Positions 18,266 through 38,808 of a DNA stretch of 64,000 nucleotides are shown in pieces; the first letter of the stretch is position 1, and each line of letters opens with the position of its first letter. The notes beneath the pieces were generated by a model. The model worked only from the letters and a program-made list of their open reading frames with translations. It was not told the origin of the DNA and did no database searches. Both the position numbers and the translations under genes were made by a program. The DNA comes from Candidatus Lambdaproteobacteria bacterium RIFOXYD2_FULL_56_26 (GTDB lineage Bacteria > SAR324 > XYD2-FULL-50-16), in assembly GCA_001783715.1 (NCBI GenBank), contig MFNF01000055.1:2849-66848 (forward strand). The letters are read 5' to 3'.

Positions 18266-18268
18266 GTT

Positions 18269-22949: not shown

Positions 22950-24007
22950 AGATTGTTTTAGTTACCGGTTCGGGCGGGTTGATCGGCAGCCAAGCGGTGG
23001 AATTTTTCTCCGAGAAATTTGACCTGGTGGTGGGTGTTGACAACGACATGCGCAAGGAATTTTTTGGCCCCGATGCCTCCACCGCCTGGAACTCAAAACG
23101 CTTGGCCGAACGGATCTCCAACTTCAAGCCCTACAACGCCGACATTCGGGACGAAAAGGGGATGGATAGGATCTTTGCCGAATATGGTACGGACATCGCC
23201 CTGATCATCCACGCCGCCGCTCAACCCAGCCACGACTGGGCCGCCAAGGACCCCTTCAAGGACTTTACGGTCAACGCCAATGGCACCTTGGTGATGTTGG
23301 AGATGACCAGGAAACATTGCCCCGGAGCGGTCTTTGTTTTTACTTCCACCAACAAGGTTTATGGGGATACCCCCAACTCGCTGCCTTTGGTGGAGTTGGA
23401 AGACCGCTGGGAAATCGACCAAAGCCATCCCTACTTCAAACATGGGATCGACGAGTTGATGAGCATCGACCAAACCAAACACAGCCTGTTTGGGGCCAGC
23501 AAGGTCGCCGCTGATGTGGTGGTCCAAGAGTATGGCCGTTATTTTGGGATGAAAACCGGGGTTTTCCGGGGCGGTTGTCTGACCGGGCCCAAACACAGCG
23601 GGACCCAGTTGCATGGCTTCCTGAGTTATCTGGTCAAGTGCGCCATCACCGGGGACCATTACACCGTCTTTGGTTACAAGGGCAAACAGGTACGGGACAA
23701 CATCCACTCCTGGGACTTGGTCAACATGTTCTGGCACTTCTACCAAAACCCACGGCCTGGAGAGGTTTACAACGCCGGTGGGGCGAGGCATTCCAACTGT
23801 TCGATGAAGGAAGCCATTGCCGTTTGTGAGAAGATGACCGGCAAAAAGATGAACTACAGCTATTCGGAAACCAACCGGGTCGGAGATCACATCTGGTGGA
23901 TCAGTGATGTCAACAAGTTCAAGGCCCATTATCCGGGCTGGAACTTCAAGTATGACCTCAACGACATCCTCTCCCAGATCCACGAAGAGATGAGCAAGAG
24001 AGCCTAG
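22946..24007 (+). CDS. NAD-dependent epimerase/dehydratase (extended SDR)
   Basis: ATG 22946 overlaps the upstream TGA (ATGA). [21 protein letters not shown]...[11 protein letters not shown]...FGASKVAAD. Confidence 0.85.
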
Positions 24008-24008
24008 C

Positions 24009-25187
24009 TTGAAGGTCCTGGTCCTCAACCACAATCAGGAGAATTTCGGGACTTACTACCGCTGCCTCTTCCATTCCCGGCACCTTGCCCGCCGGGGCCA
24101 CGAGGTGCTGATGCTCTGCGCCTCGGGCAGTACCTTGGATCCTCTGATTCGGACCAAGGAGCTGGAGAAGGGGCTCAAGATCATGACTTTGCCCAGGGTT
24201 AAGTACGGCCAATATTTCTCCGGCCAAATGGCCCGCAGCCTCCCGGCCCTGGCCCAGGTGTTATTTGGGGACTACGAGGTTTGCCACGCCTTTACGGTGG
24301 CCCAGCCGCAAATCGCTTATCCCGCCTGGGCGGCTCGACGGCTTCGGGGCAAACGGCTGATTGTTGATTGGGACGATCTTTGGGGCGGAGGGTTTGCCGA
24401 AGCCCACGCTGGACTGATCAGCCGGGTGTTGGGCTGGCACGAACGGTACTTCCTCCAACCGGCCCACCACATTACCTATGTTTCTAAAAAGATCGGCGAC
24501 GAGATCGAAAAGGCGGCGGAACGATATCCGGCCATTGCCCGGATCCCCAAAACCCTGATCCCCAACGGAGCCAACACCGAAGGGATTCGGCCTCTGGACC
24601 AGCAAGCCTGCCGCCGCCAACTGGGGATTGATCCCCAGGCCAAAATTTTGGTTTCCATGGCCAACACCTACACCGAATCGCTCCAGTTGATGCTGGAGGC
24701 CTTTCTCTTGGCCTTGGAGACGGAACCGGAACTCAAGCTATATCTGGTTGGCGAGGCCCCGATTCCCGAAGCCTACCAAGACCTGTTCCAAAAGGTGCAG
24801 CACCGTACGGTCCGGGTCGGCAAGGTGCCTTTTGCCCAGGTGCCCTTTTACCTGGGGGCCGCCGATGCCTTGGTCCTGCCGATGGAGGACAACCCCATCG
24901 AAGAGGCCCGGTTCCCCATGCGGTTTGGGGATTACCTTGCTTCGGGCAGGCCAGTGGTCAGCAACGCCGTGGGGGAGGTGAAGCGGTATCTCAACGAATA
25001 TGAAGCCGGGTTGGTGTCCCCTCCTTCGGACCCCAAGGGCTTGGCCGAGAATCTGGTTAAAGTGGTGCAAGACCCGGAACTGGCCCGGCAGTGTGGAGCC
25101 CGTGCCAGAGCGCTGGCCGAAGGACCGCTCAATTGGGATCAGGTGATCGACCAAGTGGAGCGGATCTACCGAGGCGAAAAGGGATGA
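24009..25187 (+). CDS. Family 4 (GT-B) glycosyltransferase
   Basis: MKVLVLNHNQ...RGHEV and a C-terminal GT1/GT4-type region (LVLPMEDNPIEEARFPMRFGDYLASGRPVVSNAVGE). TTG start 1 nt after the upstream stop. Confidence 0.8.
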   Translation: MKVLVLNHNQENFGTYYRCLFHSRHLARRGHEVLMLCASGSTLDPLIRTKELEKGLKIMTLPRVKYGQYFSGQMARSLPALAQVLFGDYEVCHAFTVAQPQIAYPAWAARRLRGKRLIVDWDDLWGGGFAEAHAGLISRVLGWHERYFLQPAHHITYVSKKIGDEIEKAAERYPAIARIPKTLIPNGANTEGIRPLDQQACRRQLGIDPQAKILVSMANTYTESLQLMLEAFLLALETEPELKLYLVGEAPIPEAYQDLFQKVQHRTVRVGKVPFAQVPFYLGAADALVLPMEDNPIEEARFPMRFGDYLASGRPVVSNAVGEVKRYLNEYEAGLVSPPSDPKGLAENLVKVVQDPELARQCGARARALAEGPLNWDQVIDQVERIYRGEKG

Positions 25188-26374
25188 AAATTTTTATGCC
25201 CGCCCTGGGCCGGGTGAACACCCAAAACCGGGACGGCAGCGAGGTGCGGACCACCGAGATCCTCAAACGCTGGCTCCAGCAGGGGGTCCAGGTGGACTGC
25301 CTGCTGCCCAAGCGGCAGGTCCGGGTCTTTGAGTCCCAAGGGTTACTGGGCCTGAAATACCAACTTCTGCCCGACCCCACCGAATCGGAAAGCGAACACC
25401 TGGGCAACGTCCTTTTCCTTTACCTGACCCGGATGGTCAAAGGCATGTTCGCCTCTTTTGCACGGGACTACCAGGTGATCTACGGCCCTTCGGATTTTCT
25501 GGTGGACCTGCTGCCTGCCCTTGCCTGCCGGTCCAAAAATCCCCAAGCCAAACTGGTGGTCTGCCTGTTTCTGGTCGCCCCTAAACCTTGGCGGGGCTAT
25601 GAAGGCCATTATTCCGGGAAGCTCAAACGGCCCAGCTTGCGGGGCCTATTGTATTATTTCACCCAAAGGCTGGCCATTGGCCTGATCCGGGGGTTTGGGG
25701 GCACTTTTCTGGTGCTCAACAACCAGGACAACCAGGCCTTGGTCGAGGCAGGTTGCCGCCCTGAAAGCGTTAAGACGGTGCCCATGGGGGTAGATGTCTC
25801 CTTGTACAAAGCCCCGGCGGACCAAGCGGAGCCTTTGCTCGATGGGCTGTTTATCGGTCGGCTCCATCCCCAAAAGGGACTGCCGGACCTGCTTTTGGTC
25901 TGGCGGGCAGTGGTGGACCAAAGGCCAGGGGCCAAATTAGGTATCATCGGCGGCGGAAGTGAGGAGATGAAGGCTTGGCTGGAAAGCGAAACTCGGCGGC
26001 TGGGGCTGGTGGAGAATGTAGAATACTTGGGCTTTCGCCAAGGGGAGGAAAAAATCGGTTACCTCCACCGGTCCCGTTGTTTTTTGATGCCCAGCCACTA
26101 TGAGTCCTGGGGGATGACTGCGGTGGAAGCAATGGCCGCCGGTTTGCCGGTGGTGGCTTACGACTTGCCGGTGTTTCGGGAGATTTTCCCCCAAGGGATG
26201 ATCCAGGTCCCTTTCACCGACACAGGGGCCTTTGCCCAAAAGGTGCTAGAACTGCTGGAGGACCCGGCCTTGTGCACCCAGGTGGGGGCCTTGTCCCAAG
26301 CCTTTGCCGGCCAATTTGACTGGAGCCGGGTTGCGGCCGATGAGATGGCGATTTTGACCGCACCGGCACCATAG
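25184..26374 (+). CDS. Family 4 (GT-B) glycosyltransferase
   Basis: ATG 25184 overlaps the upstream TGA (ATGA). C-terminal motif FLMPSHYESWGMTAVEAMAAGLPVVAYDLPVFREI. Confidence 0.8.
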   Translation: MKIFMPALGRVNTQNRDGSEVRTTEILKRWLQQGVQVDCLLPKRQVRVFESQGLLGLKYQLLPDPTESESEHLGNVLFLYLTRMVKGMFASFARDYQVIYGPSDFLVDLLPALACRSKNPQAKLVVCLFLVAPKPWRGYEGHYSGKLKRPSLRGLLYYFTQRLAIGLIRGFGGTFLVLNNQDNQALVEAGCRPESVKTVPMGVDVSLYKAPADQAEPLLDGLFIGRLHPQKGLPDLLLVWRAVVDQRPGAKLGIIGGGSEEMKAWLESETRRLGLVENVEYLGFRQGEEKIGYLHRSRCFLMPSHYESWGMTAVEAMAAGLPVVAYDLPVFREIFPQGMIQVPFTDTGAFAQKVLELLEDPALCTQVGALSQAFAGQFDWSRVAADEMAILTAPAP

Positions 26375-26380
26375 GTAAAG

Positions 26381-26408
26381 TTGTCTGGACAAATCGGTCT
26401 ACTATACA
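26381..26408 (+). promoter_or_regulatory. Candidate promoter at the head of the low-GC block
   Basis: TTGTCT (26381-26386), 16 nt spacer, TATACA (26403-26408). Pattern match only. Confidence 0.25.
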
Positions 26409-26451
26409 TCATGGTCAGCGATGAAGGAGCGTCCCCCTGGGAACTCCAAGT

Positions 26452-27486
26452 GTGATCCTCGTAAAAAGGTCTTTGTTTAAACCTAAAATTCAAAAAGAAC
26501 CTTTGAAACTAATCATTCAAATTCCATGTCTCAATGAGGAAGAAACCCTTCAAAAGACATTGGAAGATTTGCCCAAAAAGCTTCCAGGGATAGATCAAAT
26601 TGAAATTTTGATCATAGACGATGGTTCTACTGATGGCACGGTAAAAAGGGCCATTGAGTTAGGAGTAGATCATGTGCTTTCGTTTCCCAATAATAAAGGC
26701 CTTGCGAGGGCTTTTTCAGCCGGATTACATGCTTGCATCTACTTAAACGCAGATATCATCGTTAACACTGATGCAGACAACCAATATTATGGAGGCGGTA
26801 TAAGTAAAATTGTGGAGCCCATCCTGAAGCACAAAGCTGATATGGTTATAGGCTGCCGCCCAATAAGTGAGATGTCAGAATTTTCTTTTTTAAAAAAGTG
26901 CTTGCAACGCTTGGGAAGCTTTATAGTACGGCAACTTTCCAATACAGACATTGCTGATGCCACTAGCGGGTTCCGGGCCTTTTCCAGGTACGCAGCATTG
27001 CGAATAAATGTGGTTTCGCAGTTTTCTTACACCCTGGAATCAATCATCCAGGCTGGTTCGCGCTCCATTACCATTGTGGGAGTCTCTATCTCTGTTAACC
27101 CCAAGACCAGAGAATCCAGGTTATTTAAAAGCAATTGGCAGTACATTGTAAAATCCATCAGCATTATGTTACGCCTGTCCACTCAATTTCGCCCGGCAAA
27201 AACCTTTTCCTTGGTCGGTGGTCTTTCTTTAGTGTCGGGGTTTTTGCTTGGTGTGCGATATCTTAATTTCTTCTTTACGGGCAGTCCTTCTGGCCATGAG
27301 CAATCCAGTATTTTATCGGCCATCTTGTTACTGTTCGGAGGCTTTTCTTTTTTGGCTGGCCTGCTAGCTGATCAAATTGGGGCAAATCGCCAATTGATCG
27401 AAGAAGTGATTGCATTACAGCGGGATCAATACCGACAAAGCCAGGGCTACCAGATTCCATATTTAATATATTCAAGGCCTAAGTGA
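26452..27486 (+). CDS. Polyprenyl-phosphate glycosyltransferase (GT2; DPM1/GtrB/ArnC-like with two C-terminal TM helices)
   Basis: LKLIIQIPCLNEEETL...ILIIDDGSTDGT...NKGLARAF...NTDADNQY...ATSGFRAFSR, then two TM helices. The start is uncertain. Candidates are GTG 26452, TTG 26503, or an in-frame CTG 26437 that sits 7 nt after a GAAGGAG box. Confidence 0.85.
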   Translation: MILVKRSLFKPKIQKEPLKLIIQIPCLNEEETLQKTLEDLPKKLPGIDQIEILIIDDGSTDGTVKRAIELGVDHVLSFPNNKGLARAFSAGLHACIYLNADIIVNTDADNQYYGGGISKIVEPILKHKADMVIGCRPISEMSEFSFLKKCLQRLGSFIVRQLSNTDIADATSGFRAFSRYAALRINVVSQFSYTLESIIQAGSRSITIVGVSISVNPKTRESRLFKSNWQYIVKSISIMLRLSTQFRPAKTFSLVGGLSLVSGFLLGVRYLNFFFTGSPSGHEQSSILSAILLLFGGFSFLAGLLADQIGANRQLIEEVIALQRDQYRQSQGYQIPYLIYSRPK

Positions 27487-29360
27487 TGTGTGGTATTGCA
27501 GGTTTCTTTAATTTCAGTAATGACCGACCCGCCGATCCGCAACTGCTCCAACGAATGCTGAGCCATTTGCTCCACCGGGGGCCAGAAGGACAAGGATGTC
27601 TAATTGAAGGGGCGCTTGCGTTGGGCCACCGGCGACTTTCAATCATTGACCTGCCCGGTGGGCACCAACCAATGAAATCAGCTTGTGGGCGTTATGCCAT
27701 TAGTTTTAATGGTGAAATTTACAATCACAAAGAGCTCCGCGAATTTACCCAGAGCAAAGGATATCAATTTAAAACCCATTCAGACACCGAGGCTATTTTA
27801 AGTCTATATTCCATCGGCATTGAAGCTCCTGAACTAATGCTGCGAGGAATGTTCGCTTTTGCTCTATTTGACTTTCAGGAGCAAAAACTTCTCCTAGTAA
27901 GGGATAGAATGGGCGAAAAACCCCTATTTTACTTTCTTGGCTCTGAAGGGGTGTATTTTGCCTCTGAAATCAAGAGTTTGCTTGAGTTGTCAGGCCGTCA
28001 TGCGAGCGGACAGGCGATTTGGGACTTTCTAAGCTTGGGCTACCTGCCTGGTACCGAATGCGCTTTTGAACATATTGAGCAAGTTCCACCTGCCACAAAA
28101 CTGACAGTGAAAAAAGGTATCAAAGAGAATCGCTATTGGAAGTTAGAATCTAAAGGGCTCCAACATCTTTCTGAGGATCAATGGGCGGATCGTCTGTTTG
28201 AGTCCTTTGCTCAGGCTGTACACTTGCGCCTAGAATCGGATGTGCCGATAGGCCTATATCTAAGCAGTGGATTAGATTCCAATGCGGTGATGGAATGCAT
28301 CCGTCAAACCCGCCCGGGAACGGAAATCAACACCTACACGGCTGGTTTTGAAGAAGTTGATTTTGATGAATCCAAACAAAGTGCGGCCTTTGCTAAAGAC
28401 TTGGGTTTTCAAAATCATCAAGTAGTGATTACCCCCCAGATGATCCAGGAAAGTTTTTCTGATATAGTCGCAAAAGCCGATAATTTACATGCAAATCCGG
28501 CTATGTTTCCACAATACTTTCTTGCCAAACGTGCTTCCATAGATCTCAAGGTTATTTTGACAGGAGGTGGAGGTGATGAATTGATGCTAGGATATCCCAC
28601 ATACTTGGCGGACCGCTATAAGTGGGGCCTAAATTTAATACCAGAGTTTATGCAGGGATTAGCTCGGACTGGGCTCAATCTATTGCCTGCTTCGCACAAA
28701 AAGTTGTCGTTACAATATAAGCTGAAAAAGTTCTTAGACGGTGCCAAATATAGCCCGGAATATGCGCATTATTTCTGGCGCACTATTTTTACAGAAGAAG
28801 ACAAGGCCCAGTTGCTACCCGAAATGGCAAATAGGGACACAGTCTGGTGCTACCAAGCCCAAAGTGGACACATGGAAGGGTACTCCGCATTGGAGGGATT
28901 CGCTTATCAGGACCTGATGGTGTGGTGGGCCAATATGGGGCTTTATCAAGCAGATACCATGGGTATGAGTCACTCCGTAGAAGTTCGTACCCCCATGATG
29001 GATCACGAATTTATGCGTCTCTGTTTCGAGATTCCGGAGCATCTGAAACTTAAAGGCTTTCAAGGAAAAGCGATTTTTCGCAAGGCAATGAGCCGTAATT
29101 CCACTCTGGACTTAATGAAGATGAAAAAAAAAGGGTTTCACGTACCGCTGGCAAGTTGGTTCGCTAATCAACTCCAACCCTGGGTATACCAAAAATTGTC
29201 ACCTGACCGGATTCGAGCCCTAGGTTTTATTCAATATTCGCAAGTTGAAAAATTGATCAAAGGACATGTTAGCCGTAGGGCTGATTTCTCATGGCATTTG
29301 ATCAACCTTTTGGTCCTAGTGGAATGGTACCACCAATACATTCTACAGGAGCCATCATGA
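27486..29360 (+). CDS. Asparagine synthase (glutamine-hydrolysing)-family amidotransferase, AsnB-like
   Basis: MCGIAGFFNF gives the Ntn Cys directly after Met, so ATG 27486 is the start, overlapping the upstream TGA by 1 nt. Also HRGPEG, HRRLSIIDL and the synthetase-domain SSGLDS PP-loop. Confidence 0.9.
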   Translation: MCGIAGFFNFSNDRPADPQLLQRMLSHLLHRGPEGQGCLIEGALALGHRRLSIIDLPGGHQPMKSACGRYAISFNGEIYNHKELREFTQSKGYQFKTHSDTEAILSLYSIGIEAPELMLRGMFAFALFDFQEQKLLLVRDRMGEKPLFYFLGSEGVYFASEIKSLLELSGRHASGQAIWDFLSLGYLPGTECAFEHIEQVPPATKLTVKKGIKENRYWKLESKGLQHLSEDQWADRLFESFAQAVHLRLESDVPIGLYLSSGLDSNAVMECIRQTRPGTEINTYTAGFEEVDFDESKQSAAFAKDLGFQNHQVVITPQMIQESFSDIVAKADNLHANPAMFPQYFLAKRASIDLKVILTGGGGDELMLGYPTYLADRYKWGLNLIPEFMQGLARTGLNLLPASHKKLSLQYKLKKFLDGAKYSPEYAHYFWRTIFTEEDKAQLLPEMANRDTVWCYQAQSGHMEGYSALEGFAYQDLMVWWANMGLYQADTMGMSHSVEVRTPMMDHEFMRLCFEIPEHLKLKGFQGKAIFRKAMSRNSTLDLMKMKKKGFHVPLASWFANQLQPWVYQKLSPDRIRALGFIQYSQVEKLIKGHVSRRADFSWHLINLLVLVEWYHQYILQEPS

Positions 29361-30697
29361 GCCGTTACGCCTTGATTGATTTCCGACACCCTGAGAAAGG
29401 ATTGGCTAATAGAGATCAGACTGGTACTTTCGGCTCCAACATGAAAGCTGGCGGTCTTATAGGCCGGGTGATCGGGAAGATTAAGAGTTCCAGTACTGTG
29501 GTTCCCAACTTGACTCTTGCCTATCTAAAAGCGATTGCGACTCAAGAGGGTAAAAAAGCCGTAATTTATTCAGGGATGCCTCAGGGAGAAGAGTGGATTT
29601 TGATCGCCTCAAGCCTCCACCACTACAAGCTTGAGATTGCCTTAGCTCAAGAGATAAAGAAAGCTTTCCCTCAATCGAAAGTCGGCTTTATCAATGCCTT
29701 TGCGACGACTAATCCAGAACTATTTGAAGAGGTTGCGGATTTTGTAATCTTGGGAGAACCAGAATGGGCGTTGTGGAAGCACTTTCGTGGGGAACAAGAT
29801 TTGGTGGGGCGGGTTGTTTCTGAACCCCAACTGGACCTAGATCAATTGCCCTTTCCCCAGTGGGAGAAAGACAGGCTCTGGGAATACGGTTACTTTCCAG
29901 CGCTAAGTCGGCGACCGTTTTTGACAATTCAGTCCAGCCGAGGCTGTCCTTATGGATGCCATTTTTGTCCCTATCTTGTGCTTCAAGGCTTGCCGTTGCG
30001 CCGGAGATCTAACCAGTTAGTACTAGCGGAGTTGAAACATCTGAAAACAGAATATGGTGTAAAATCAGTACTTTTTCGAGATATTATGTTTAGTTACGAC
30101 ATGAAAGGTACCAAGGAGTTGGTTCAGATGATTGCTCAGGCAAACCTAGGGATTGAATTTGGATGCGAAACTCGCCCCGACCATTTTGATGATGAACTAA
30201 TCGAACTTTTAAAGGCGGCGCAATTTAAAATGGTTAACCTAGGCATTGAGTCGCCACATCGCGATATTCTCAAAGCCAGTGGCCGTAAATCAGTTAAAAA
30301 TAATCGAATAGAAAAGGTAATCAAAAAATTGGAGCGGGCAGGCATCAAGGTACAGGCTTTTTACATTTTAGGATTGCAAGAAGATACCAAGCAAAGCATG
30401 GAGGATACTATCGCCTATAGTCGCAAGCTCAACACCTTTACGGCGCAGTTTTGTATTCTCACCCCCTTTCCAGGAACCAAGTATTATGAAGATTTAGACA
30501 AAAGTTTGCTCTTAACGGATGATTTTGGAAGGTTTACCGAATACGAGCCGGTGGTAGACATTGCAGGCGCAACTCCTGGAGATATCTTGGAGCTGCGTGA
30601 TCTAGCCTTTAGTGGGTACTATATGCGTCCGCAGTGGTTTACCAAACACGGAGTGAGGTTAGGCTTGGAACTCTTGGTAAACATTTTTAAGCACTGA
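29357..30697 (+). CDS. B12-binding-domain radical SAM enzyme, copy 3
   Basis: ATG 29357 overlaps the asnB-like TGA (ATGA). SSRGCPYGCHFCPY (Cx3Cx2C) follows an N-terminal Rossmann-like region; also NLGIESPH... and FYILGLQEDT. Confidence 0.85.
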   Translation: MSRYALIDFRHPEKGLANRDQTGTFGSNMKAGGLIGRVIGKIKSSSTVVPNLTLAYLKAIATQEGKKAVIYSGMPQGEEWILIASSLHHYKLEIALAQEIKKAFPQSKVGFINAFATTNPELFEEVADFVILGEPEWALWKHFRGEQDLVGRVVSEPQLDLDQLPFPQWEKDRLWEYGYFPALSRRPFLTIQSSRGCPYGCHFCPYLVLQGLPLRRRSNQLVLAELKHLKTEYGVKSVLFRDIMFSYDMKGTKELVQMIAQANLGIEFGCETRPDHFDDELIELLKAAQFKMVNLGIESPHRDILKASGRKSVKNNRIEKVIKKLERAGIKVQAFYILGLQEDTKQSMEDTIAYSRKLNTFTAQFCILTPFPGTKYYEDLDKSLLLTDDFGRFTEYEPVVDIAGATPGDILELRDLAFSGYYMRPQWFTKHGVRLGLELLVNIFKH

Positions 30698-30707
30698 GGT
30701 GTTGAAG

Positions 30708-31601
30708 ATGAGCAAACCTAAAATATTGATTACCGGTTGTTCTGGATACTTAGGCCAGCAAATATTCGCTAGTGCCACCGACAGTGGCTTCTCAGCAGTC
30801 GGGACATCCCGTGGTCCTGCGGCCTTGAAAACACCTTTTGTGCAAGCTGACCTTCTTAGAAAGGAAAATCTTGAAACATTACTAGACTCAGTTGATGTGG
30901 TGTTGCATTGCGCTGCGGTCACCCGCTCCAACGATCCAAAACAATTGTTTCAAGGTAATCAAGCTGTAGTTATGGCATTGATTAAAGCATTAAAAATCAG
31001 GCCTCAAATCAAACTTATCTTTTTCAGCACGGATCAAGCCATAGGGCCGATTGGTGCGTATGGGCATTCCAAATTGGAATGTGAGGCATCTATTCAAAGC
31101 GGTTTGGAAAACTACAGTATTTTGCGCCTTGGAGCGATTTTGGGGGATTACCAACCAGAGGGAAATTCAACCTTTTCCAAGTTAACCTCTCAATTGTTGA
31201 AAAAATCGGTCATGCTTTTGCCACAGCAAGGCCGGTTTTTGATGCCACTATCGTTGTATCAAGATATCTGGAACCTGATCAAATTTCTACTGTGTCGTCC
31301 CCAAAAAGAAGCGCTTTTAATTAACTGCTTCCGATATTATGAGCTTCACCATGTTTTGAAACTCTTAGCCGAAGGTCTACCTAGGTCGGCAAAAATCATA
31401 CCCGTCCCCTTGGGGCCCATAAAAATCCTTGCCAAGGTAATGATCGCAGCCAATTTGTTACCTAAGCTACCTTGGGTAGGTTTGGCAAATATAGGTAGCA
31501 TTGCAGAACCCCGAGACGGGATAGGTTTTGATCAATTTCAATTACCTAAGGTAAGAATAGAAGATCAGATCCAATTAATGCTCAAGCAGCTCAAGGCTTA
31601 G
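30708..31601 (+). CDS. NAD(P)-dependent epimerase/dehydratase-like SDR
   Basis: KILITGCSGYLGQQI Rossmann motif, VLHCAA, and YGHSKLECE (YxxxK). AGGTG lies 6 nt upstream of ATG 30708. Confidence 0.7.
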   Translation: MSKPKILITGCSGYLGQQIFASATDSGFSAVGTSRGPAALKTPFVQADLLRKENLETLLDSVDVVLHCAAVTRSNDPKQLFQGNQAVVMALIKALKIRPQIKLIFFSTDQAIGPIGAYGHSKLECEASIQSGLENYSILRLGAILGDYQPEGNSTFSKLTSQLLKKSVMLLPQQGRFLMPLSLYQDIWNLIKFLLCRPQKEALLINCFRYYELHHVLKLLAEGLPRSAKIIPVPLGPIKILAKVMIAANLLPKLPWVGLANIGSIAEPRDGIGFDQFQLPKVRIEDQIQLMLKQLKA

Positions 31602-31606
31602 GCTTG

Positions 31607-32599
31607 ATGAGAACAATACTACGGCTAGTAGCAAAATTCCTGTTTCTGGGGTTGATTTTGGGGTACTTGATTTACTCGGGCCACCTAAATCCAGGAAAGC
31701 TGTTTCTTTTTACAGAAATGCCTCTGTTTTTTGGTTTAATGTTTGCGAACGTGGCACTGGGTATGTTGGGGCTCAATGCGGTTCGGTGGTGGGTTTTGCT
31801 AAAAAGCCTCTCTATCCATTTGATGTTCAGGCGGGTGCTTGCGATCACCATGATCAGCTTTTTCTTCAATATTTCAATGCCTGGGACGATAGCACAGGAC
31901 GCTATTCGTAGCCTGTATATCTTAAAAGAAAAGGAAAAGACCTCACAAACCGTACCTCTAGTGATGTCGGTTATACTTGACCGCTTTTTGGGTTTTTTCG
32001 GGGTGATTTTGTCGTTTCTTGCAGGGGTTCTTTGGTTACCCGAAGAATTGAATATAAATCCAATAATTTATTATACTGTATGGACCGTTGGCTTCTGTTC
32101 TTTTTGTGGGATTTTCACAATATCTATTTTTGTCTTACCCCTTTCTGAGATAGACCAATTTATCGTGATACTGGCGAGGGTTCCCATAATCGGAAGCCAT
32201 TTGATCCAGATTGCTTTGGCCCTACGAGCATATAAGGGCAAGTGGGGTGTTTTGTCGATAGCCATGGGGTTATCAATACTCACTCAAGTTATTTTTGTTT
32301 TTGTCATGACTGTTGGATATCAACTACTCACTAGGCAATCTCTTCCTTTTTCTGTACATATGTTTGTCGTGCCGATTGGTGAGTTGGCAACGATTTTGCC
32401 GTTAACTCCCGCCGGGGCGGGGATAGGGCATGTGTCATATGACTATTTGTATCACATGTTTGGCGGAAAAATGGGGGCCGATTTATTCAATCTATATTTT
32501 TGTATGGTGCTCTTGGTAGGTTCCATTGGTGGACTTCCATACCTTTTGATTAAGCCGAAAAAAATGAATAAGGAAGACCTTTTGACTACGTCCCAGTAA
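31607..32599 (+). CDS. UPF0104 / flippase-like membrane protein, copy 2
   Basis: Polytopic, with VRWWVL...PGTIAQDAIRSLY and PIGELATILPLTPAGAGIGHV...GADLFNL...GGLPYLL, collinear with 2465-3457. ATG 31607 is preceded by an in-frame TTG 31604. Confidence 0.7.
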   Translation: MRTILRLVAKFLFLGLILGYLIYSGHLNPGKLFLFTEMPLFFGLMFANVALGMLGLNAVRWWVLLKSLSIHLMFRRVLAITMISFFFNISMPGTIAQDAIRSLYILKEKEKTSQTVPLVMSVILDRFLGFFGVILSFLAGVLWLPEELNINPIIYYTVWTVGFCSFCGIFTISIFVLPLSEIDQFIVILARVPIIGSHLIQIALALRAYKGKWGVLSIAMGLSILTQVIFVFVMTVGYQLLTRQSLPFSVHMFVVPIGELATILPLTPAGAGIGHVSYDYLYHMFGGKMGADLFNLYFCMVLLVGSIGGLPYLLIKPKKMNKEDLLTTSQ

Positions 32600-32769
32600 A
32601 ACTAAAAATCCACTCCGCCTCATTTTATAACGGAACGAAATTTTCGAACAAAATTTGGAGTTGGCCTAAGGTGAACCTCAAAAACTGGACAATGGAGTCC
32701 ACTTTATTCTAAAAGGACGGGAAACCTGTCCAGGTAAGAGGTACTACTTTAGTGCTTACGGAGATTATC

Positions 32770-33531
32770 ATGAATCAGTCGTATGCTGTTAGGTTGCTAT
32801 TGGGGCTATTGCTGTTTTTTGGATTATCTTTCACATCAGTTGGATTCGCTTGGGACGCAATGACCGAAGATGGGGCCGAGTTTCCCAACAAAGACCGGTA
32901 CTTCCCCAAGGTGATGGTCCAGTACCAAAGGGTACTTTTTTTGTGGGACGATTTGGTGGACTACCGCCAGGATGTTTGGGGGGACAACCAAAACGGAAAG
33001 GTCACCCTACGTACCGAAAAGCGAGCCCGGACCAGCCACGGGGTCACGGACTATTTGGACAATGGCAAGCTGATCCTCAAAAACCAGGAAATGGTTTGGC
33101 TGTTAAAACGGCTGAACTTTGGGCAGTTTGAATGTCGTTGGTGCGGGTTGGGAAAAGCGGAACCGGGCAACGACAAGTTCATTGGCTTTGGGGACCCAGC
33201 CGAAGGGTATGCCGCAGGTTATAGGCTTTACAGCGGTGACAAAGGACCGGGGTTGTATGTGTTTTTGGTCAACCAAGGCCAAGCCAAAACCGTGGCCATT
33301 CCCTGGAACGATGACTTTGCCGCCAGTACCAGGTACATCGTTTCTTGGAGCCCAGGGAAGTTTGATTTTTACCTGATCACCGCTACCAAGTTCATCCATG
33401 CGGCCACCATCGCCGAAGCGGACATCGCCGTAGTGGGGATTCCCAAGATCAACATGGAGATCTCCCTGCAAAGTATCTCGGGTCCCAATGAGGTCATGGC
33501 GGACCTGATCAAATACGATGCCTATCCTTAA
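32770..33531 (+). CDS. Secreted hypothetical protein (signal peptide; beta-rich, possibly lectin/jelly-roll-like)
   Basis: ATG 32770 is preceded by GGAG. Signal-like N-terminus AVRLLLGLLLFFGLSFTSVGFA. The remainder has no family I can name. Confidence 0.55.
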   Translation: MNQSYAVRLLLGLLLFFGLSFTSVGFAWDAMTEDGAEFPNKDRYFPKVMVQYQRVLFLWDDLVDYRQDVWGDNQNGKVTLRTEKRARTSHGVTDYLDNGKLILKNQEMVWLLKRLNFGQFECRWCGLGKAEPGNDKFIGFGDPAEGYAAGYRLYSGDKGPGLYVFLVNQGQAKTVAIPWNDDFAASTRYIVSWSPGKFDFYLITATKFIHAATIAEADIAVVGIPKINMEISLQSISGPNEVMADLIKYDAYP

Positions 33532-33617
33532 GTCCGGCCACCGGTAGGTTCCCGGCGGCCAAACCCCTTGGGGCTGTTCATGGATGCCGGTCCAGCGGTG
33601 GCCTTGGGTCCATGCCG

Positions 33618-36311
33618 CTAGGGCTGGACAAAGTCCACCTTCAAGGTGAGCGGGTTGGTTTTGACCGCCCAGAGCTGGCTGTTTTCCCCGGAAAAATCAA
33701 ACCGCACCCACAACCGCTTTCCGGTCACGGCGGTTTGCCCGGACAGCTCCCGCTCGTAAATTCCCGTCCAAATGCCTCGCCCATCGCTGGCCAAACGGCC
33801 CATAGAACGGAATTGGGTCCCGTTGGTCGAAATGCTGATCCCTATAAAGTTGACCATCTCCGGGTCGTTGTGGACCCTGGGGAAGCTGGTAAAGGCCAAG
33901 GTCTTCATCTCTTTTTGGCCGCGAAGTTCAAAGGTCAAGCTGGCCGGGTTAGGGGAGTTGGGGGCAAACCAGCTCCAGTCTCCGGCCACAAACAACCCCA
34001 GCCCTTCGGCACCACCGCTTTCCAGTTGGGCTTGGGAAACCAGGAGTTTGACCTCCTCAGAAGCCCCGTTGGCCGCCAAATCCAGGATTTGGGCCTTGGG
34101 GGTTGGCACCCATACGGTTGAAGCTGGCACCAGTCGCCAGTCATAGGTCTCTTCCAGCAAGGCGGGAGCCGTCCCGGAGCCGGGCCGAGCCGATTGGTAG
34201 GCTTGGCTGCCTTGGGAACAACGGCAGGGAGACTGTTTGACGAACACACCTTCCCCTTTGGCTTGGAGCGCCAGACCATAAAATCCACGGGGGTCCATTT
34301 TGAGGCCAGAAAACTCCAACCGCACTTTTCCGCTTGGGTTGACGCTGGCCTTACCTAAAACCTGGGTTGCCCCACCCATAGGATTGGCCGGGTCCAAGGC
34401 CAGAACTTCGGCGGTGACGTTGCCCGTGGCAAGCCCGTCCTGACGCAACTCCAGTTCCACCGCCTCCAGGGCCGGGAAGGGGAAACGGAAGGTTTGGACC
34501 AAGGGCTCGGTGCCCAGAGGAATCCAGGTGGACTCTTGGGTTAGGGAGGCGTTCACGACATACACCGCCTGGAGCGGGATCCCCCTGGAGGTATAATTGA
34601 TCCGAACCGGTTCCAACTTGGGGTGGAGTTGGGCAAAGCGGAGCAGATCATCGTAGTCGTTGCCGTAGTTGGCAGGTTTGCCGGGAATCTTTGCCCCCGC
34701 TTGGTCCAGGGAAAAGAGGTAAAGGATTTTTTGTACTCCCCGGTCAAACTGCTCCTGTTCCCATAACCGCATTTCCGAGAGTTGGTACTCTTTGGCCCCT
34801 AACAACCCCGCCCAGGAATGGACCCTGTATTCTCCGTGGGTCAGGAAAAACAGCGGGGCATTGGGGATCAAGGTCGAGTGGCCCAGCACCACCAACACCT
34901 GCTCCGGCGGACCGGCTTTAAGCACCTCTTGGGCCAACACTTCGCTGTGGATAGCTCCCCAAAGGTTGGCATCGTCCTGCCGGTAGTCTACATAATAATT
35001 TTTGTAGGTCATCAGGCTGCTGATCCCAAAGACTAGCCCGGCCAACAGCCACAGTCCTCGCCCTCGGCCCAGGGCAGTCCACTTCTGTTCCAACCAACCT
35101 GCGGCCAAGAGCATCCCCTCGACACAAAGGGCATACAGGGCCGGAAGGACCACCACAAAGTAACGGATCTCATAGGTGATCAAAAAGGCAAATACCGTCC
35201 AAGACACCCAGAACCAAGTGAACCAAAGTTTGTCGGCTGAACTGCGGCGAACAAAGGCCCGACCCAGGCCCAACAGGAAAAAGGGCAACAGGACCCGTTG
35301 GAGCTGGGTTGCCCCGACCAATGTAAAGTTGGGCATGTCGGTGCCAAAGGGAGCCGGATAGGGGGGCATCGACCAAAAGAGGACCCGGAGCGACATCAGG
35401 GGATTGTTCCACAAAAAGGCGGCTCCCTTGGCGACCGGGTTTTCATCGGTGCCCCGGTCCAGGTAGTAGGCATAGGTTTGGATTAGATTGCCCCAGGGGT
35501 TAGGGGTCAAGGCGGCGGAAAAAAGGATGGAGCCCAGCACAAACACCCCAAGAGCCAGCAAGGCCCCCAGCCAGAGGTATTTTCCCTTTAAAAAAGTTAA
35601 ACTCCCACTGTCCCAAACCAACCAAACCAGCAGAATCAACGGGAACACAAACACCGAAGGGTAACAATTGAGCAGTGCAAACCCGTAGGCCAAGCCGCCC
35701 CAAAGGAAATAAACCGGACGTTTTTGGCTGTATCCCCTAAAAAAAGCCCCCAAGGTCAAGGCTCCAAAGAGCGCTCCAAAAACAGTTGGGGTAAACACGG
35801 TTCGGCCCAAGAGCAGCAGGACCAAGGACTGGCTGGCAAACAAGGTTGCCAAGAGGGCCGATTGGGTCCCCGAGATTCGGGCTACTGTCTTGTAAAGTAC
35901 CGCCAAAAAGGCCAGGGACAAAACTGCAGCGGAAAAATGGATGGCAAAGGCATTGGCCCCAAAGAGCCAAAATGCGGCCCCCAGCCAGAGGGTCTGCAAG
36001 GGGTAAAGGTCGGGGATCAGGTAGGCGGTGTGCATGGGCAGGTTAGGCCCCAGCGCCATTTGGGACCACCGCTGGATCATATAGGGGCCAAAGTCCAGGT
36101 GGGCTCTGTAAGCTTGGTAAAAAAGTTCGGTCGCCAAGCCCAGGACCGCCTCTCCGTTTTCCAGGGGAGGAAAGTTGTGGATGTCCCAAAAGAGAAAAAA
36201 CAAGCCGTTGGCCAGGACCAAGAGAAACAAAGCGATCTTTGTGGTCGGTTTTTGTGGAACCATCTTTGATTTCCGGGAAATTCTTGTTGTGGCCTTGGCC
36301 GCTGAGGTCAA
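33618..36311 (-). CDS. GT-C fold membrane glycosyltransferase (ArnT/PMT, GT39/83-like) with a ~440-aa extracytoplasmic C-terminal region
   Basis: 897 aa. About 12 N-terminal TM helices with a first-loop acidic motif (FPPLENGEAV), then a long soluble region. The start is TTG 36311 or ATG 36263. Confidence 0.65.
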   Translation of the reverse strand: MTSAAKATTRISRKSKMVPQKPTTKIALFLLVLANGLFFLFWDIHNFPPLENGEAVLGLATELFYQAYRAHLDFGPYMIQRWSQMALGPNLPMHTAYLIPDLYPLQTLWLGAAFWLFGANAFAIHFSAAVLSLAFLAVLYKTVARISGTQSALLATLFASQSLVLLLLGRTVFTPTVFGALFGALTLGAFFRGYSQKRPVYFLWGGLAYGFALLNCYPSVFVFPLILLVWLVWDSGSLTFLKGKYLWLGALLALGVFVLGSILFSAALTPNPWGNLIQTYAYYLDRGTDENPVAKGAAFLWNNPLMSLRVLFWSMPPYPAPFGTDMPNFTLVGATQLQRVLLPFFLLGLGRAFVRRSSADKLWFTWFWVSWTVFAFLITYEIRYFVVVLPALYALCVEGMLLAAGWLEQKWTALGRGRGLWLLAGLVFGISSLMTYKNYYVDYRQDDANLWGAIHSEVLAQEVLKAGPPEQVLVVLGHSTLIPNAPLFFLTHGEYRVHSWAGLLGAKEYQLSEMRLWEQEQFDRGVQKILYLFSLDQAGAKIPGKPANYGNDYDDLLRFAQLHPKLEPVRINYTSRGIPLQAVYVVNASLTQESTWIPLGTEPLVQTFRFPFPALEAVELELRQDGLATGNVTAEVLALDPANPMGGATQVLGKASVNPSGKVRLEFSGLKMDPRGFYGLALQAKGEGVFVKQSPCRCSQGSQAYQSARPGSGTAPALLEETYDWRLVPASTVWVPTPKAQILDLAANGASEEVKLLVSQAQLESGGAEGLGLFVAGDWSWFAPNSPNPASLTFELRGQKEMKTLAFTSFPRVHNDPEMVNFIGISISTNGTQFRSMGRLASDGRGIWTGIYERELSGQTAVTGKRLWVRFDFSGENSQLWAVKTNPLTLKVDFVQP

Positions 36312-36326
36312 GGCTGTGAACCGTTT

Positions 36327-37283
36327 TTAGGGCGAAGGTTTTTTTCTGCGGTCCCATACCAAATAGGCCAGACCGGCGAGCAGGAAAAATCCGCTCGCTA
36401 GACTGCCCAGGAAATAATACCGTTGGGGCAAAAATTCGAGCACCAGATCAAACTCGTAGCCTGCTTCCGGGGTCCCCTCCAGCAGTCCTGCCTTTTTGAG
36501 GGCTTCCAGGTCGATCCACCAAAAGTTCCCGAACTCCCCGTATTTGCCGTGGCTTTCCCCAAACCAAGGTTGGGCTCCGATCAAGGAGTACCAAGCCGGG
36601 GGTGTAAGATTGTTGTTTTGCAGGCTATTGTAAAAAGGTTTGGAGATAAAGTCCACCTGGTAGTCTTCCGTCCTTTTTTCCACCTCCCCTTGCCGGTAGT
36701 CGTACAGGGGCCGTTGTTTGGGGCTCAGGTCCCCCAGGTCGCTGACCCAACCCTTGGCGAGCATTGCCTGAAGTTCCTTCCAGTTGGCCTGCCCCACTTG
36801 GTTGCCTTCGAGGACCTTGTACTCTTCTTTCTGCAGCTCGGGCGGGCGCTGGGCCGTGCGGGGGCGGAAATAGACCTTCCAGTGGTGGTGGTAGGAGGCC
36901 AGAAAGACTAACGGGAAGCTTTGTTTGGCCCCATGGACCCGGAGGTAGTAGGTAGAGGAGGAATGCCTGACGAACTCCAGCACCGGAACAGGGCCGGTAA
37001 ACCTTGGGTAAATCCGAAAGTCTTCGGAGGCGGTTGGGTTGGGTCCCAGAGGGACTCCGGCCGATTGTAGCAAACCGCTCAGTTGGGTTTGCTCGGCGGC
37101 ACTTTTGGCGCTCAGGTAGGACCAACTCGGCTCGGCCCCGGCGGATGTGGGGCAAAGGGTCCACCAGAGCCCGGCCACAAAGCCCAAAGCCCAAGTCCGG
37201 GGACGAAGGACCCAGCCCCTAAGAGGCACCGAAGGTCGATTGGACGGGCACCAGCCCAAAGGTTGAGGGGAAGTTTCGGTCAT
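36327..37283 (-). CDS. Hypothetical membrane-anchored protein resembling the C-terminal extracytoplasmic module of YfhO-type proteins
   Basis: Start at ATG 37283, 1 nt after the upstream stop. N-terminal hydrophobic segment. YYLRVHGAKQSFPLVFLASYHHHWKVY resembles the ...Y/F-x-P-x-W-x-A... stretch of the two YfhO-like proteins. C-terminal TM FLGSLASGFFLLAGLAYLVW. Confidence 0.45.
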   Translation of the reverse strand: MTETSPQPLGWCPSNRPSVPLRGWVLRPRTWALGFVAGLWWTLCPTSAGAEPSWSYLSAKSAAEQTQLSGLLQSAGVPLGPNPTASEDFRIYPRFTGPVPVLEFVRHSSSTYYLRVHGAKQSFPLVFLASYHHHWKVYFRPRTAQRPPELQKEEYKVLEGNQVGQANWKELQAMLAKGWVSDLGDLSPKQRPLYDYRQGEVEKRTEDYQVDFISKPFYNSLQNNNLTPPAWYSLIGAQPWFGESHGKYGEFGNFWWIDLEALKKAGLLEGTPEAGYEFDLVLEFLPQRYYFLGSLASGFFLLAGLAYLVWDRRKKPSP

Positions 37284-37284
37284 T

Positions 37285-38808
37285 TTATTTGGAAAGAAGT
37301 CGCAGCAACAAGGGAGCCTTTTGGTAGAAAAAAAACTCCCAGTAAAATTGGTACCACCCCCGGCGGAACCGGAGGTTGGAAAAGGGGCTGTAGGCCCAAC
37401 TGAACAACCGCAAGATCCGGTACATGGCGTTTTTTCCGCTGGTGACCTTAAAGATTTTTTGGTCGATAAAGTAGGACCCCAACACCAAGAGGTTGCAAAA
37501 CTCTCGGGTTTCTTGGGTTTCCCAAGGGGCTCGGTAGTTCCCCTCCACTTCCACTTCCACCCATTGGCCCACCGAAGAGGGAGGGGTGAATTTCCAGTTG
37601 GCCGAGGCATAGTCGAACAGCTCGGTGCCCGGCAGCGGGCGGAACCGGTTGGGGGTGAAGATGATGGCCCTGGGGTTGTCTTCAATCAGCCGTAAGATCA
37701 AGTCCCGGGTCTGTTTGAGGTCGGTCAGGGTTTCGCCGGGGATCCCTACGATAAAGTTGTACCCCGCCGTGATCTCCTTGTGTCGGGCCAATTTCTGGTT
37801 GCATTCGATGATGTCTTCGACGGTGCAGTTTTTTTTGAACAGCTCCAGCATTTGGTTGCTGCCGCTTTCGGCTCCGATGTGCAGGATGTTGGTACCGGCG
37901 TTGGCCAACTTGCTCAAAAAGTCATCGGACATCTTTTTGATTTCGTTGATCCTCGCACCCCGAAAGCCCAGGCGAACCTTGAGGCCCCGGCGGCTGATCT
38001 CGTCGATGATCGACTCCACATGCTGGAGGTTCACAAAGGAGTCGTCGTCGATAAAATAAATGTAGGAGGCTTGGTACCGGTCCACCAAAAACTGGATGTG
38101 GTCCACCACTTCCACCACGTCCACCCGCTCCCACTTGCGGGCGTAGCCCTGCAGCGCCGCCGGGGTGCTGCAAAAGGTGCATTTGTAGGGGCAGCCGTAA
38201 ACGCTGTACATGGAAAAGATGAACCCCATGTCCTCCAACTGTCCGTACCGGCCATAGTCGGGGATCAGGTGGTAGGGGATCTTCTTGTAGTTGATGTATT
38301 CAAACTGCTTGGCTGGGGGCCAGGACCGCAGTTGGCCGTCCTGTTTGAGGTAAAGCCCGGCAATCTGGTCGGGCCGGGTCCCTTGGGCCAAGGCTTGGGT
38401 CAACAGGGCCAAGGGTTTGGAACCATAGCCGCTGATGACATAGTCGCAGGCCGGGGTAAAGGTGAAGGGGGTTTCGGGGTAAAAGGTCGGATGGGGGCCG
38501 CCCCAAATCACCGGCAGGTCCGGGCGCTTTTCCTTGGCAAACTCGCTGACCTCGATGGCGTTCAAGATCGGTTTTCCGGTCATTACGCTGACCCCAACCG
38601 CAAGCAGGGAAGGATCGGCCAACTTTTGGGCCAACACTTCCTTCCAGTCTTGCAGGTGGAGCCGGTTGTCCAGGAGTTCCACCCCATACCCGGCTTCGAT
38701 CACCTCAATGGAGGTGTAAAGCAGGCTCAGAGGGGCATGGCGGACAAAATTCCCCGAAAGCCCCATGTGAGGATAAACCAAAAGCAATTTGTTTTTTTGG
38801 GGATTCAT
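37285..38808 (-). CDS. B12-binding-domain radical SAM enzyme, copy 4
   Basis: Start chosen at ATG 38808 (MNPQKNKLLLVYPHMG). B12-binding-like LLAVGVSVMTGKPI...VIWGGPHPTF, then SVYGCPYKCTFCSTP and LHIGAESGS. Confidence 0.85.
   Translation of the reverse strand: MNPQKNKLLLVYPHMGLSGNFVRHAPLSLLYTSIEVIEAGYGVELLDNRLHLQDWKEVLAQKLADPSLLAVGVSVMTGKPILNAIEVSEFAKEKRPDLPVIWGGPHPTFYPETPFTFTPACDYVISGYGSKPLALLTQALAQGTRPDQIAGLYLKQDGQLRSWPPAKQFEYINYKKIPYHLIPDYGRYGQLEDMGFIFSMYSVYGCPYKCTFCSTPAALQGYARKWERVDVVEVVDHIQFLVDRYQASYIYFIDDDSFVNLQHVESIIDEISRRGLKVRLGFRGARINEIKKMSDDFLSKLANAGTNILHIGAESGSNQMLELFKKNCTVEDIIECNQKLARHKEITAGYNFIVGIPGETLTDLKQTRDLILRLIEDNPRAIIFTPNRFRPLPGTELFDYASANWKFTPPSSVGQWVEVEVEGNYRAPWETQETREFCNLLVLGSYFIDQKIFKVTSGKNAMYRILRLFSWAYSPFSNLRFRRGWYQFYWEFFFYQKAPLLLRLLSK

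Follow-up and report, generated by a model that had tools for sequence, protein, structure and literature searches.

We analysed a 64,000-nt stretch (the window) of contig MFNF01000055.1 (GenBank assembly GCA_001783715.1, positions 2,849 to 66,848 of the forward strand) from Candidatus Lambdaproteobacteria bacterium RIFOXYD2_FULL_56_26, a member of SAR324. The window holds a surface-polysaccharide locus (roughly 10-40 kb, NadE to MutS), which encodes a Wzx-like flippase, two GT2 and two GT4 glycosyltransferases and two genes of the epimerase/dehydratase family of short-chain dehydrogenases/reductases (SDRs). At the end of this locus lies a low-GC block of five plus-strand genes encoding a polyprenyl-phosphate-type GT2, an AsnB-type amidotransferase, a radical S-adenosylmethionine (rSAM) enzyme, an SDR and a UPF0104 membrane protein. 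It is followed by a gene for a secreted protein, orf259, and by a convergent GT-C glycosyltransferase gene. The most likely product of this cassette is an amidated, deoxygenated sugar donor of an unusual kind, which would decorate the envelope from outside the cytoplasm. Its host is an uncultured population recovered many times with an identical context, including the NCBI metagenome-assembled genome (MAG) GCA_001783655.1 and Rifle-type assemblies. The MutS of this population shares no more than 65% identity with any other protein, and its nearest named relatives are SAR324 and 'Deltaproteobacteria' MAGs. Exact-protein matches were found on 24 contigs for the rSAM enzyme and on 19 for the left-flank GT4; the context was the same in 8 and 6 representative places, respectively, and these matches included no empty site or variant strain.

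The block stands out by its composition. In windows of 500 nt, the GC content is 0.58-0.62 up to position 26250, 0.41-0.48 at 26500-32750 and 0.51-0.61 from 32750, and a two-breakpoint segmentation of positions 22000-38000 placed the maximum-likelihood breaks at 26371 and 32850. The GC content between these breaks (26371..32850) is 0.44, against about 0.57-0.58 outside. The original prediction, an earlier reading of this DNA from its sequence alone, had placed a sharp drop after 26374 and a recovery around 32850, in agreement with the segmentation; its hand counts of single 60-nt lines are also reproduced, both inside the block (38.3, 36.7 and 46.7%) and outside it (70.0, 61.7 and 53.3%, the last having been given as 55%). 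Profiles of GC, codon and tetranucleotide usage, which it had proposed as a check, show an extreme discontinuity at these borders. The GC content at third codon positions (GC3) is 0.43-0.47 in the five block genes versus 0.69-0.80 in 20 flanking genes, with orf259 (0.65) and the stretch at 17462-21796 (0.51-0.59) as exceptions among the flanks. The composition-normalised tetranucleotide correlation between the block and the rest of the window is 0.76, whereas 200 outside segments of the same size gave 0.962 +/- 0.006, with a minimum of 0.946. Homologous cassettes elsewhere have the GC content of their hosts; the window cassette differs from its host (0.44 vs 0.57).

The five open reading frames (ORFs) form the tightly coupled unit that had been described: the GT2 stop and the AsnB start overlap by 1 nt (TGATG), AsnB and rSAM are joined by a 4-nt ATGA overlap, and the remaining gaps are 10 and 5 nt. 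Among the features of genomic islands, atypical composition and sharp borders are present, and mobility genes, a tRNA target and flanking repeats are absent. The window has no tRNA, its ORFs include neither an integrase nor a transposase, no insertion sequence (IS) lies at the block borders, and the repeats near the block are short and at chance level only. Scans of the window for repeats, tRNAs, Rfam families, promoters and terminators gave no insertion signature and no regulatory RNA. The 26371-32850 block is a 6.5-kb stretch of foreign, low-GC DNA within the surface-polysaccharide locus, most probably acquired horizontally; the acquisition proposed earlier is supported by GC3, by tetranucleotide usage and by the replacement of the cassette in a sister lineage, described below.

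The first gene (26452..27486, plus strand) encodes a 344-aa GT2 (PF00535, 88.7 bits) of the DPM1/ArnC/GtrB/AglJ class. Its two C-terminal transmembrane (TM) helices (residues 250-268 and 287-305) and its relatives in the Protein Data Bank (PDB) over residues 16-311, namely DPMS (5mlz) and ArnC (9hwj, 9bhc and 8vxh), all of them polyprenyl-phosphate GT2s, bear out the DPM1/GtrB/ArnC-like assignment first made. The best NCBIfam matches are AglJ, PpgS, ArnC and PgfS, every one under its cut-off. This GT2 would make a lipid-linked monosaccharide donor. The second gene (27486..29360, plus strand) encodes a glutamine-hydrolysing AsnB-type amidotransferase of 624 aa with GATase_7 and Asn_synthase domains. 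It scores 400.8 bits against TIGR01536 (cut-off 267.1) and thus belongs to the family to which it had been assigned. It has an N-terminal MCGIAG motif with the Cys nucleophile and a PP-loop, SSGLDS, at residue 261, and both the nucleophile (MCG) and the PP-loop are kept among the cassette AsnBs. The protein is predicted to amidate a carboxylate of the sugar.

The third gene (29357..30697, plus strand) encodes the 446-aa rSAM enzyme (PF04055), whose CxxxCxxC cysteines (C197/C201/C204) are invariant in 35 homologues. An AlphaFold2 model built from these 35 homologues reached a predicted local distance difference test score (pLDDT) of 94.5. Its top Foldseek match is AprD4 (6fd2), with TM-scores of 0.83/0.82 over 465 columns, covering the full length and the two-domain architecture, at 22% identity in the structural alignment. 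Other folds, including the B12 enzymes TsrM, TokK, CysS and OxsB as well as MiaB/RimO, reached 0.58-0.70. AprD4 (6fd2) is also the only strong PDB sequence match (1e-29). In profile searches, the enzyme scored 128.2 bits against HpnJ (TIGR03471, cut-off 577.6) and 112.5 bits against AprD4 (NF033070, cut-off 500). The original prediction had called it a B12-type radical SAM protein; the radical SAM class and the ATGA overlap stand, and the B12 part holds in name only: Pfam gives PF04055 only, PF02310 was not detected and the closest relative is a non-cobalamin enzyme: AprD4 does not bind cobalamin (PMC12931638). PF02310 is faint or present in a few distant homologues. A role as a B12-dependent methyltransferase was rejected, since PF02310 was not detected and the model resembles AprD4 clearly more than it does the B12 enzymes. 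AprD4 is a radical SAM 1,2-diol dehydratase which, with the NADPH reductase AprD3, deoxygenates C3' of paromamine (PMC5461906). From its modelled fold, the window enzyme may dehydrate or rearrange the sugar ring by a radical mechanism.

The fourth gene (30708..31601, plus strand) encodes an extended SDR of the RmlD/epimerase type (297 aa; PF01370 and PF04321), as had been proposed, with the motifs GCSGYLG (GxxGxxG) and YGHSK (YxxxK); a PDB sequence search with this protein gave no match. It is a candidate keto-reductase partner of the rSAM enzyme, likened to AprD3 by gene neighbourhood.

The fifth gene (31607..32599, plus strand) encodes a UPF0104/LPG_synthase_TM membrane protein of 330 aa with about 9 TM segments. 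It scores 85.6 bits against PF03706 (cut-off 33.4) and 33.9 bits against TIGR00374, under the cut-off of 43.2, and has no MprF synthase domain; no match was found in a PDB sequence search. There is no GtrA or SMR flippase gene within positions 26375-36311, where this LPG_synthase_TM protein occupies the corresponding position. It is the putative flippase for the lipid-linked sugar.

Downstream of the five genes, orf259 (32770..33531, plus strand) encodes a secreted or periplasmic protein of 253-259 aa, in keeping with the signal-like N-terminal hydrophobic segment (residues 15-33) and with its earlier description as secreted; it has no Pfam or NCBIfam match. With a GC3 of 0.65 and 91% identity to orf253 of the sister lineage, contig L088, it is conserved backbone and not part of the imported block. 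The break in composition and synteny (32752-32850) lies within the 5' end of orf259, in the signal-peptide region, so the recombination that swapped the cassette also replaced the orf259 N-terminus.

The convergent gene (33618..36263, minus strand) encodes an 881-aa GT-C of the PMT_2/ArnT-PMT class (PF13231, 56 bits, cut-off 26.1) with at least 8 TM segments, organised as a polytopic N-terminal domain followed by an extracytoplasmic C-terminal domain of roughly 400 aa. The ArnT/PMT-like nature proposed for it is supported by the PMT_2 score; the earlier length of 897 aa is that of the longest ORF, and 881 aa is the length in other assemblies. Its GC3 (0.69) is native. Profile comparison with the PMT_2 proteins that flank homologous cassettes gave an hhalign probability of 78% (E 1.8e-5). 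A PDB sequence search found no match, a word-indexed search of the protein collection retrieved only the protein itself and one 84% identical relative, and scans of metagenome contigs found no further relatives. From its position and by analogy, it may transfer the donor sugar of the cassette.

To place the cassette in a wider context, we compared it with other loci that encode rSAM enzymes of the same family. In this compact family, about 58 clusters reach a full-length identity of at least 35%, and more than 100 clusters (50% identity) exceed 300 bits in a search of 1.84 billion representatives. Co-conservation was counted in about 28 non-redundant loci, each holding a family rSAM gene. A gene of the SDR cluster is present in 25/28, AsnB in 23/28 and GT2 in 19/28; gene maps show the SDR directly beside the rSAM in 21/28, and one locus (L005) has all five Pfam types together. 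The genes are co-conserved elsewhere; the original prediction would have been refuted had they not been. The loci span at least 10 phyla or classes, including Bdellovibrionia, Bacteriovoracaceae, Alphaproteobacteria, Planctomycetota, Nitrospira and Elusimicrobia, with further ones in Omnitrophota, Desulfatibacillaceae, Myxococcales, Actinomycetota and, as an IS-flanked copy, Vibrio coralliilyticus.

The association with a GT-C emerged more strongly than first proposed, from these loci as well as from the retention of the GT-C in the sister lineage. A Pfam-recognised PMT_2 or YfhO GT-C adjoins the core in 15/28 loci, often immediately upstream of the rSAM gene, and in 8 further loci a 540-707-aa protein with 9-13 TM segments and no Pfam match lies beside the core. 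Overall, the core has a GT-C or some other large polytopic protein as a neighbour in 23/28. The 586-707-aa proteins without a Pfam match resemble PMT_2 proteins only weakly at profile level (hhalign probability 69%), and we therefore call them large polytopic partners rather than GT-Cs. The flippase slot is occupied by GtrA in three loci (L003, L006 and L023) and by an LPG_synthase_TM protein in the window and in L005, which is a non-orthologous filling of one role. Given that GtrA fills this slot in the three loci, the role of the window UPF0104 protein is probably analogous to that of GtrA. The flippase-like assignment made earlier holds only as an analogy at the level of the family (PF03706), and the protein is not an orthologue of the L005 copy; phmmer searches found no orthologues of the window UPF0104 protein or of the GT-C in any of the fetched loci.

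Some of these loci have additional features. In L003 (V. coralliilyticus GCA_013364385.1, 8904-17258), GtrA, rSAM, SDR, AsnB and GT2 genes lie between transposase fragments (HTH_Tnp_1 and TnpB_IS66); this module has a GC content of 0.40 versus 0.45 in its surroundings and is likely a second recent transfer, in a cultivable organism. In two Bacteriovoracaceae loci, a gene for a polytopic protein of about 390 aa lies directly beside the cassette AsnB (L029 14011-15207 and L030 14012-15181, both minus strand). The L029 protein is an Amt-family ammonium transporter by Pfam and the L030 copy clusters with it, which hints at a coupling of AsnB to ammonia supply. Three alphaproteobacterial loci encode a FAD_binding_4 oxidase right after the GT2 (L009 13411-14709, L013 13305-14759 and L023 13424-14737); the Pfam match is that of the L009 copy, with which the L013 and L023 copies cluster. 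In the Omnitrophota-type locus L007 (11393-13055), an AbiEii-family gene and a gene for a 266-aa partner are inserted between rSAM and SDR. Some members of the rSAM family are fusions, such as P0043 (738 aa), which has methyltransferase domains, and several representatives (P0289, P0291, P0296, P0299 and others) are 900-2600 aa long with two to four matched stretches.

The sister lineage shows directly what lies at the right junction of this variable site. The gene order of contig L088 follows that of the window from AmiC through orf408, a B12-rSAM gene, orf286 and the GT-C to orf259, at 83% nucleotide identity, and its GT-C is 84% identical to that of the window. Nucleotide homology ends at window position ~32836, at the compositional breakpoint. 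Beyond it, L088 (10185-17495) has a different cassette of native GC content, with a GC3 of about 0.8, which encodes an SDR, an rSAM-SPASM protein, a DegT aminotransferase, a GT2, an AsnB and a methyltransferase. The L088 GT2 is of the AglJ/PgfS/ArnC type with two C-terminal TM helices, and the L088 AsnB is 36% identical to that of the window. The site beside the conserved GT-C thus holds alternative cassettes, each centred on a polyprenyl-phosphate GT2 with enzymes for sugar tailoring. With a constant GT-C and an exchangeable cassette, this site would act as a serotype-like switch of the decorating sugar. The gene logic of the L088 cassette is analogous to that of the window, with an unrelated type of radical SAM enzyme.

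The borders of the block, the domain identities of its products, the AprD4 fold, the co-conservation, the alternation in the flippase slot, the adjacency of the GT-C and the replacement of the cassette in L088 point to a common explanation. We consider it probable that the block, acquired horizontally, serves as the donor-synthesis cassette of a Gtr/Arn-like system that decorates glycans in the periplasm, with amidation and deoxygenation of a lipid-linked sugar. From these observations we infer a sugar, a chemistry for each step, a stage of tailoring, a role for the flippase-like protein and an acceptor, as follows. At the inner membrane face, the GT2 would load a sugar from a nucleotide sugar onto polyprenyl phosphate. 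AsnB would adenylate a carboxylate, most simply C-6 of a hexuronate, and convert it to a carboxamide with glutamine-derived ammonia. The AprD4-like enzyme would abstract a ring hydrogen and eliminate the neighbouring hydroxyl, giving a keto-deoxy sugar whose ketone the SDR would reduce, the net result being a deoxygenation as in the AprD4/AprD3 pair. The LPG_synthase_TM protein would then flip the finished lipid-linked sugar to the outer face, where the adjacent native GT-C (33618-36263) would pass it on to an extracytoplasmic acceptor, in all probability the polysaccharide that the surrounding ~10-40 kb locus produces. A Gtr/Arn-like three-component system with amidation, radical SAM and redox tailoring had been suggested by the original prediction; the system itself is supported, and the tailoring would take place on the carrier if the arguments set out next apply.

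A different order of events is conceivable, in which AsnB, rSAM and SDR build an unusual nucleotide sugar (e.g. UDP-deoxy-hexuronamide) in the cytoplasm and the GT2 then loads it for flipping and transfer by the GT-C. All three enzymes are devoid of TM segments and, being soluble, could have a nucleotide sugar as their substrate, ahead of the GT2 reaction, which weighs against tailoring on the lipid. In O-antigen synthesis, the amidation of uronic acids by an AsnB-type enzyme (WbpS) is generally placed in the cytoplasm. Most Arn tailoring precedes ArnC, and the nucleotide level is the rule in Arn and for the radical SAM enzyme DesII (PMC11434129). Tailoring on the lipid is nevertheless favoured by the nearest characterised relatives of the rSAM enzyme, AprD4 and HpnJ, which act on glycosides, not on nucleotide sugars. 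The substrate of HpnJ is hopanoid-bound glucosamine. That of AprD4 is paromamine (PMC5461906). It is also favoured by the stand-alone modules, which lack nucleotide-sugar genes: the IS-flanked Vibrio module carries no nucleotidyltransferase or dehydrogenase. A further argument comes from the FAD_binding_4 protein of the alphaproteobacterial versions, whose Pfam domain is also carried by DprE1. DprE1 acts on a lipid-linked sugar (PMC11127046). On this balance, completion of the sugar at the nucleotide level appears unlikely.

The resemblance to hopanoid genes raises another possibility, namely that the cassette makes a membrane glycolipid as its end product: the GT2 would glycosylate a lipid, the rSAM enzyme would remodel the head group in the manner of HpnJ in hopanoid cyclitol-ether formation, the UPF0104 protein (HpnL-like) would move the lipid to the outer leaflet, and the GT-C would be unrelated. 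As in the hopanoid HpnI/HpnK/HpnJ set (with HpnA and HpnL), a GT2, a B12-class-like rSAM enzyme, an SDR and a UPF0104-type protein occur together, and HpnJ acts on a lipid-bound sugar. HpnJ is the best NCBIfam match of the window rSAM enzyme (128 bits) and the SDR weakly matches HpnA, but these scores are 4- to 15-fold under the cut-offs. The scanned ORFs of the window include no hopanoid genes, the cassette has no deacetylase, and AsnB and a GT-C, neither of which belongs to the hopanoid set, are encoded here. Lipid flippase domains such as that of MprF belong to the UPF0104/LPG_synthase_TM family, and a PlsC-type acyltransferase gene directly follows the SDR gene in locus L001, both of which would suit a glycolipid. 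Such a product would, however, leave unexplained the GT-C or large polytopic protein beside the core in 23/28 loci, often translationally coupled upstream of the rSAM gene, the presence in three flippase slots of GtrA, a partner of polyprenyl-phosphate GT2s, and the exchange of donor cassettes beside a conserved GT-C in the sister lineage. We regard this explanation as very unlikely. Still less credible is ordinary cytoplasmic polysaccharide assembly, with the GT2 as a Leloir transferase acting on a repeat unit linked to undecaprenyl diphosphate, the other genes supplying its nucleotide-sugar donor and the low GC content reflecting locus mosaicism: it would fit the Wzx-like flippase, the four other glycosyltransferases and the two epimerase/dehydratase-family SDR genes of the locus, as well as the low-GC serotype-specific regions typical of O-antigen and capsule loci, but the GT2 resembles DPMS/ArnC over its full length, including a C-terminal TM pair that is atypical of repeat-unit GT2s, and the module also occurs outside polysaccharide loci with GtrA (L003) and beside a large membrane protein (L001).

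Several further observations weigh against the proposed donor-synthesis cassette. Regarding its acquisition, no integrase, tRNA or repeats that would mark an insertion were found at the block. Regarding the flippase, no similarity was detectable by pairwise BLAST between the window UPF0104 protein and the LPG_synthase_TM protein of L005, and the Omnitrophota/Elusimicrobia-type loci showed no flippase-like gene. The GT-C gene, native and convergent, closes a minus-strand unit of its own that includes the B12-rSAM gene; as L088 retains it next to a different cassette, its pairing with the window cassette rests on position and analogy. Its AlphaFold2 model, obtained from a two-sequence alignment, has a pLDDT of only 35 and does not confirm the fold. 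For GT2, rSAM and SDR, all NCBIfam equivalog matches are far under their cut-offs, and the HpnJ profile scores slightly higher than that of AprD4 for the rSAM enzyme (128 vs 112 bits). No structure of HpnJ has been solved, and a radical rearrangement instead of dehydration is conceivable.

The proposed cassette shares its general plan with known three-component systems (ArnC/ArnEF/ArnT, GtrB/GtrA/Gtr* and CsbB/GtcA/YfhO), which consist of a GT2 acting on undecaprenyl phosphate, a flippase and a periplasmic GT-C. As in the Gtr, Arn, CsbB-GtcA-YfhO and streptococcal Pgf systems, a polyprenyl-phosphate GT2 with C-terminal TM helices, a flippase-type protein and a GT-C are encoded side by side, and homologous cassettes carry GtrA, YfhO or PMT_2 proteins. 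Unlike Gtr and Arn, the cassette has three extra soluble enzymes as fixed components, AsnB, an AprD4-like rSAM enzyme and an SDR, and its flippase slot holds an LPG_synthase_TM protein instead of GtrA or SMR. The window site, with a conserved GT-C and a variable donor cassette, is also the reverse of the gtr loci of Shigella and Salmonella, in which the GT-C is the serotype-specific part.

The closest precedent for tailoring in such systems is found in pentofuranose systems. In Citrobacter youngae O1/O2 (ORF12-15), an auxiliary SDR epimerase changes undP-Ribf to undP-Xylf, and the GT-C is donor-promiscuous, conserved between serotypes and endowed with an extra extracytoplasmic C-terminal domain (PMC11127046). 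Gain or loss of tailoring genes changes the serotype in these systems, and the authors of that 2024 report knew of no other tailoring enzymes in three-component systems (PMC11127046). The window system resembles those of Citrobacter and of mycobacteria (DprE1/DprE2) in having a donor that would be tailored after its synthesis, a conserved GT-C with a C-terminal domain and an SDR as putative tailoring enzyme; the pentofuranose systems differ in starting from phosphoribosyl pyrophosphate with a polyprenyl phosphoribose synthase and in using a MATE or SMR flippase (PMC11127046). They involve epimerisation only, without radical SAM or amidotransferase steps, whereas the window cassette starts from a GtrB/ArnC-type GT2.

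The individual enzymes also have known counterparts. With AprD4 (6fd2), the window rSAM enzyme shares the full-length fold (TM-score 0.83) and the core sequence match (1e-29). That PF02310 was not detected in it agrees with the cobalamin-free AprD4, and the SDR gene directly beside the rSAM in 21/28 loci is a candidate counterpart of AprD3. The window enzyme differs in sequence (22% identity; NF033070 score of 112 against a cut-off of 500) and in belonging to a Gram-negative or candidate-phylum envelope context instead of an actinomycete antibiotic cluster. The substrate of AprD4/AprD3 is a sugar ring in a glycoside, as proposed for the window rSAM enzyme. The AsnB has the Ntn-glutaminase and PP-loop of AsnB-type amidotransferases such as WbpS, which acts on GalNAcA, AsnB1/LtsA, which acts on mDAP, and the XrtA/PEP-CTERM enzymes of TIGR03108. 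Against the latter profile it scores 398 bits, under the cut-off of 817, and the window gene also lies in a surface-glycan locus. We know of no fixed coupling to rSAM and SDR genes as a feature of any of these enzymes.

Full-text literature searches found no description of the combination of GT2, AsnB, AprD4-like rSAM, SDR and flippase-like protein, in line with the original prediction, which knew of no such pathway. More tentatively, and with less than even confidence, we suggest that these cassettes represent an undescribed, phylum-spanning class of extracytoplasmic glycosylation, in which AprD4-type dehydration and ATP-dependent amidation of a polyprenyl-phosphate sugar would yield a deoxy-uronamide-type residue beyond the reach of Leloir enzymes, and in which exchangeable cassettes and a promiscuous GT-C would act as a serotype switch. 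Three-component periplasmic systems are a main source of antigenic variation in bacterial envelopes and were until recently thought to move plain hexoses; their first auxiliary tailoring enzyme, an SDR epimerase, was reported in 2024 (PMC11127046). If our proposal is correct, the chemistry of lipid-linked donors would be widened by amidation and radical SAM deoxygenation, and AprD4-type dehydratases would gain a role beyond the biosynthesis of aminoglycosides (apramycin). More than a hundred rSAM clusters without annotation, from Bdellovibrionota, Omnitrophota, Elusimicrobia, Planctomycetota and other groups and from one cultivable coral pathogen, would also acquire a function. The cassette swap beside a conserved GT-C would be a clear natural example of modular serotype switching.

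Two other features of the host locus are worth reporting. Besides the cassette enzyme, the locus encodes two further radical SAM proteins, so that three lie within about 28 kb of glycan genes. The first (11217-12683, plus strand) is HpnJ/BchE-like and is located between GT2 genes at 10092-11213 and 12683-13573, and the second (37285-38808, minus strand) contains a B12-binding domain and forms part of the minus-strand unit orf408 / rSAM / orf286 / GT-C. A second, milder compositional anomaly is present at 17462-21796, with a GC content of about 0.50 and a GC3 of 0.51-0.59. It covers orf267 and the gene for a PAN-domain protein of 1175 aa that has about 9 TM segments, and may be another imported piece of the polysaccharide locus.

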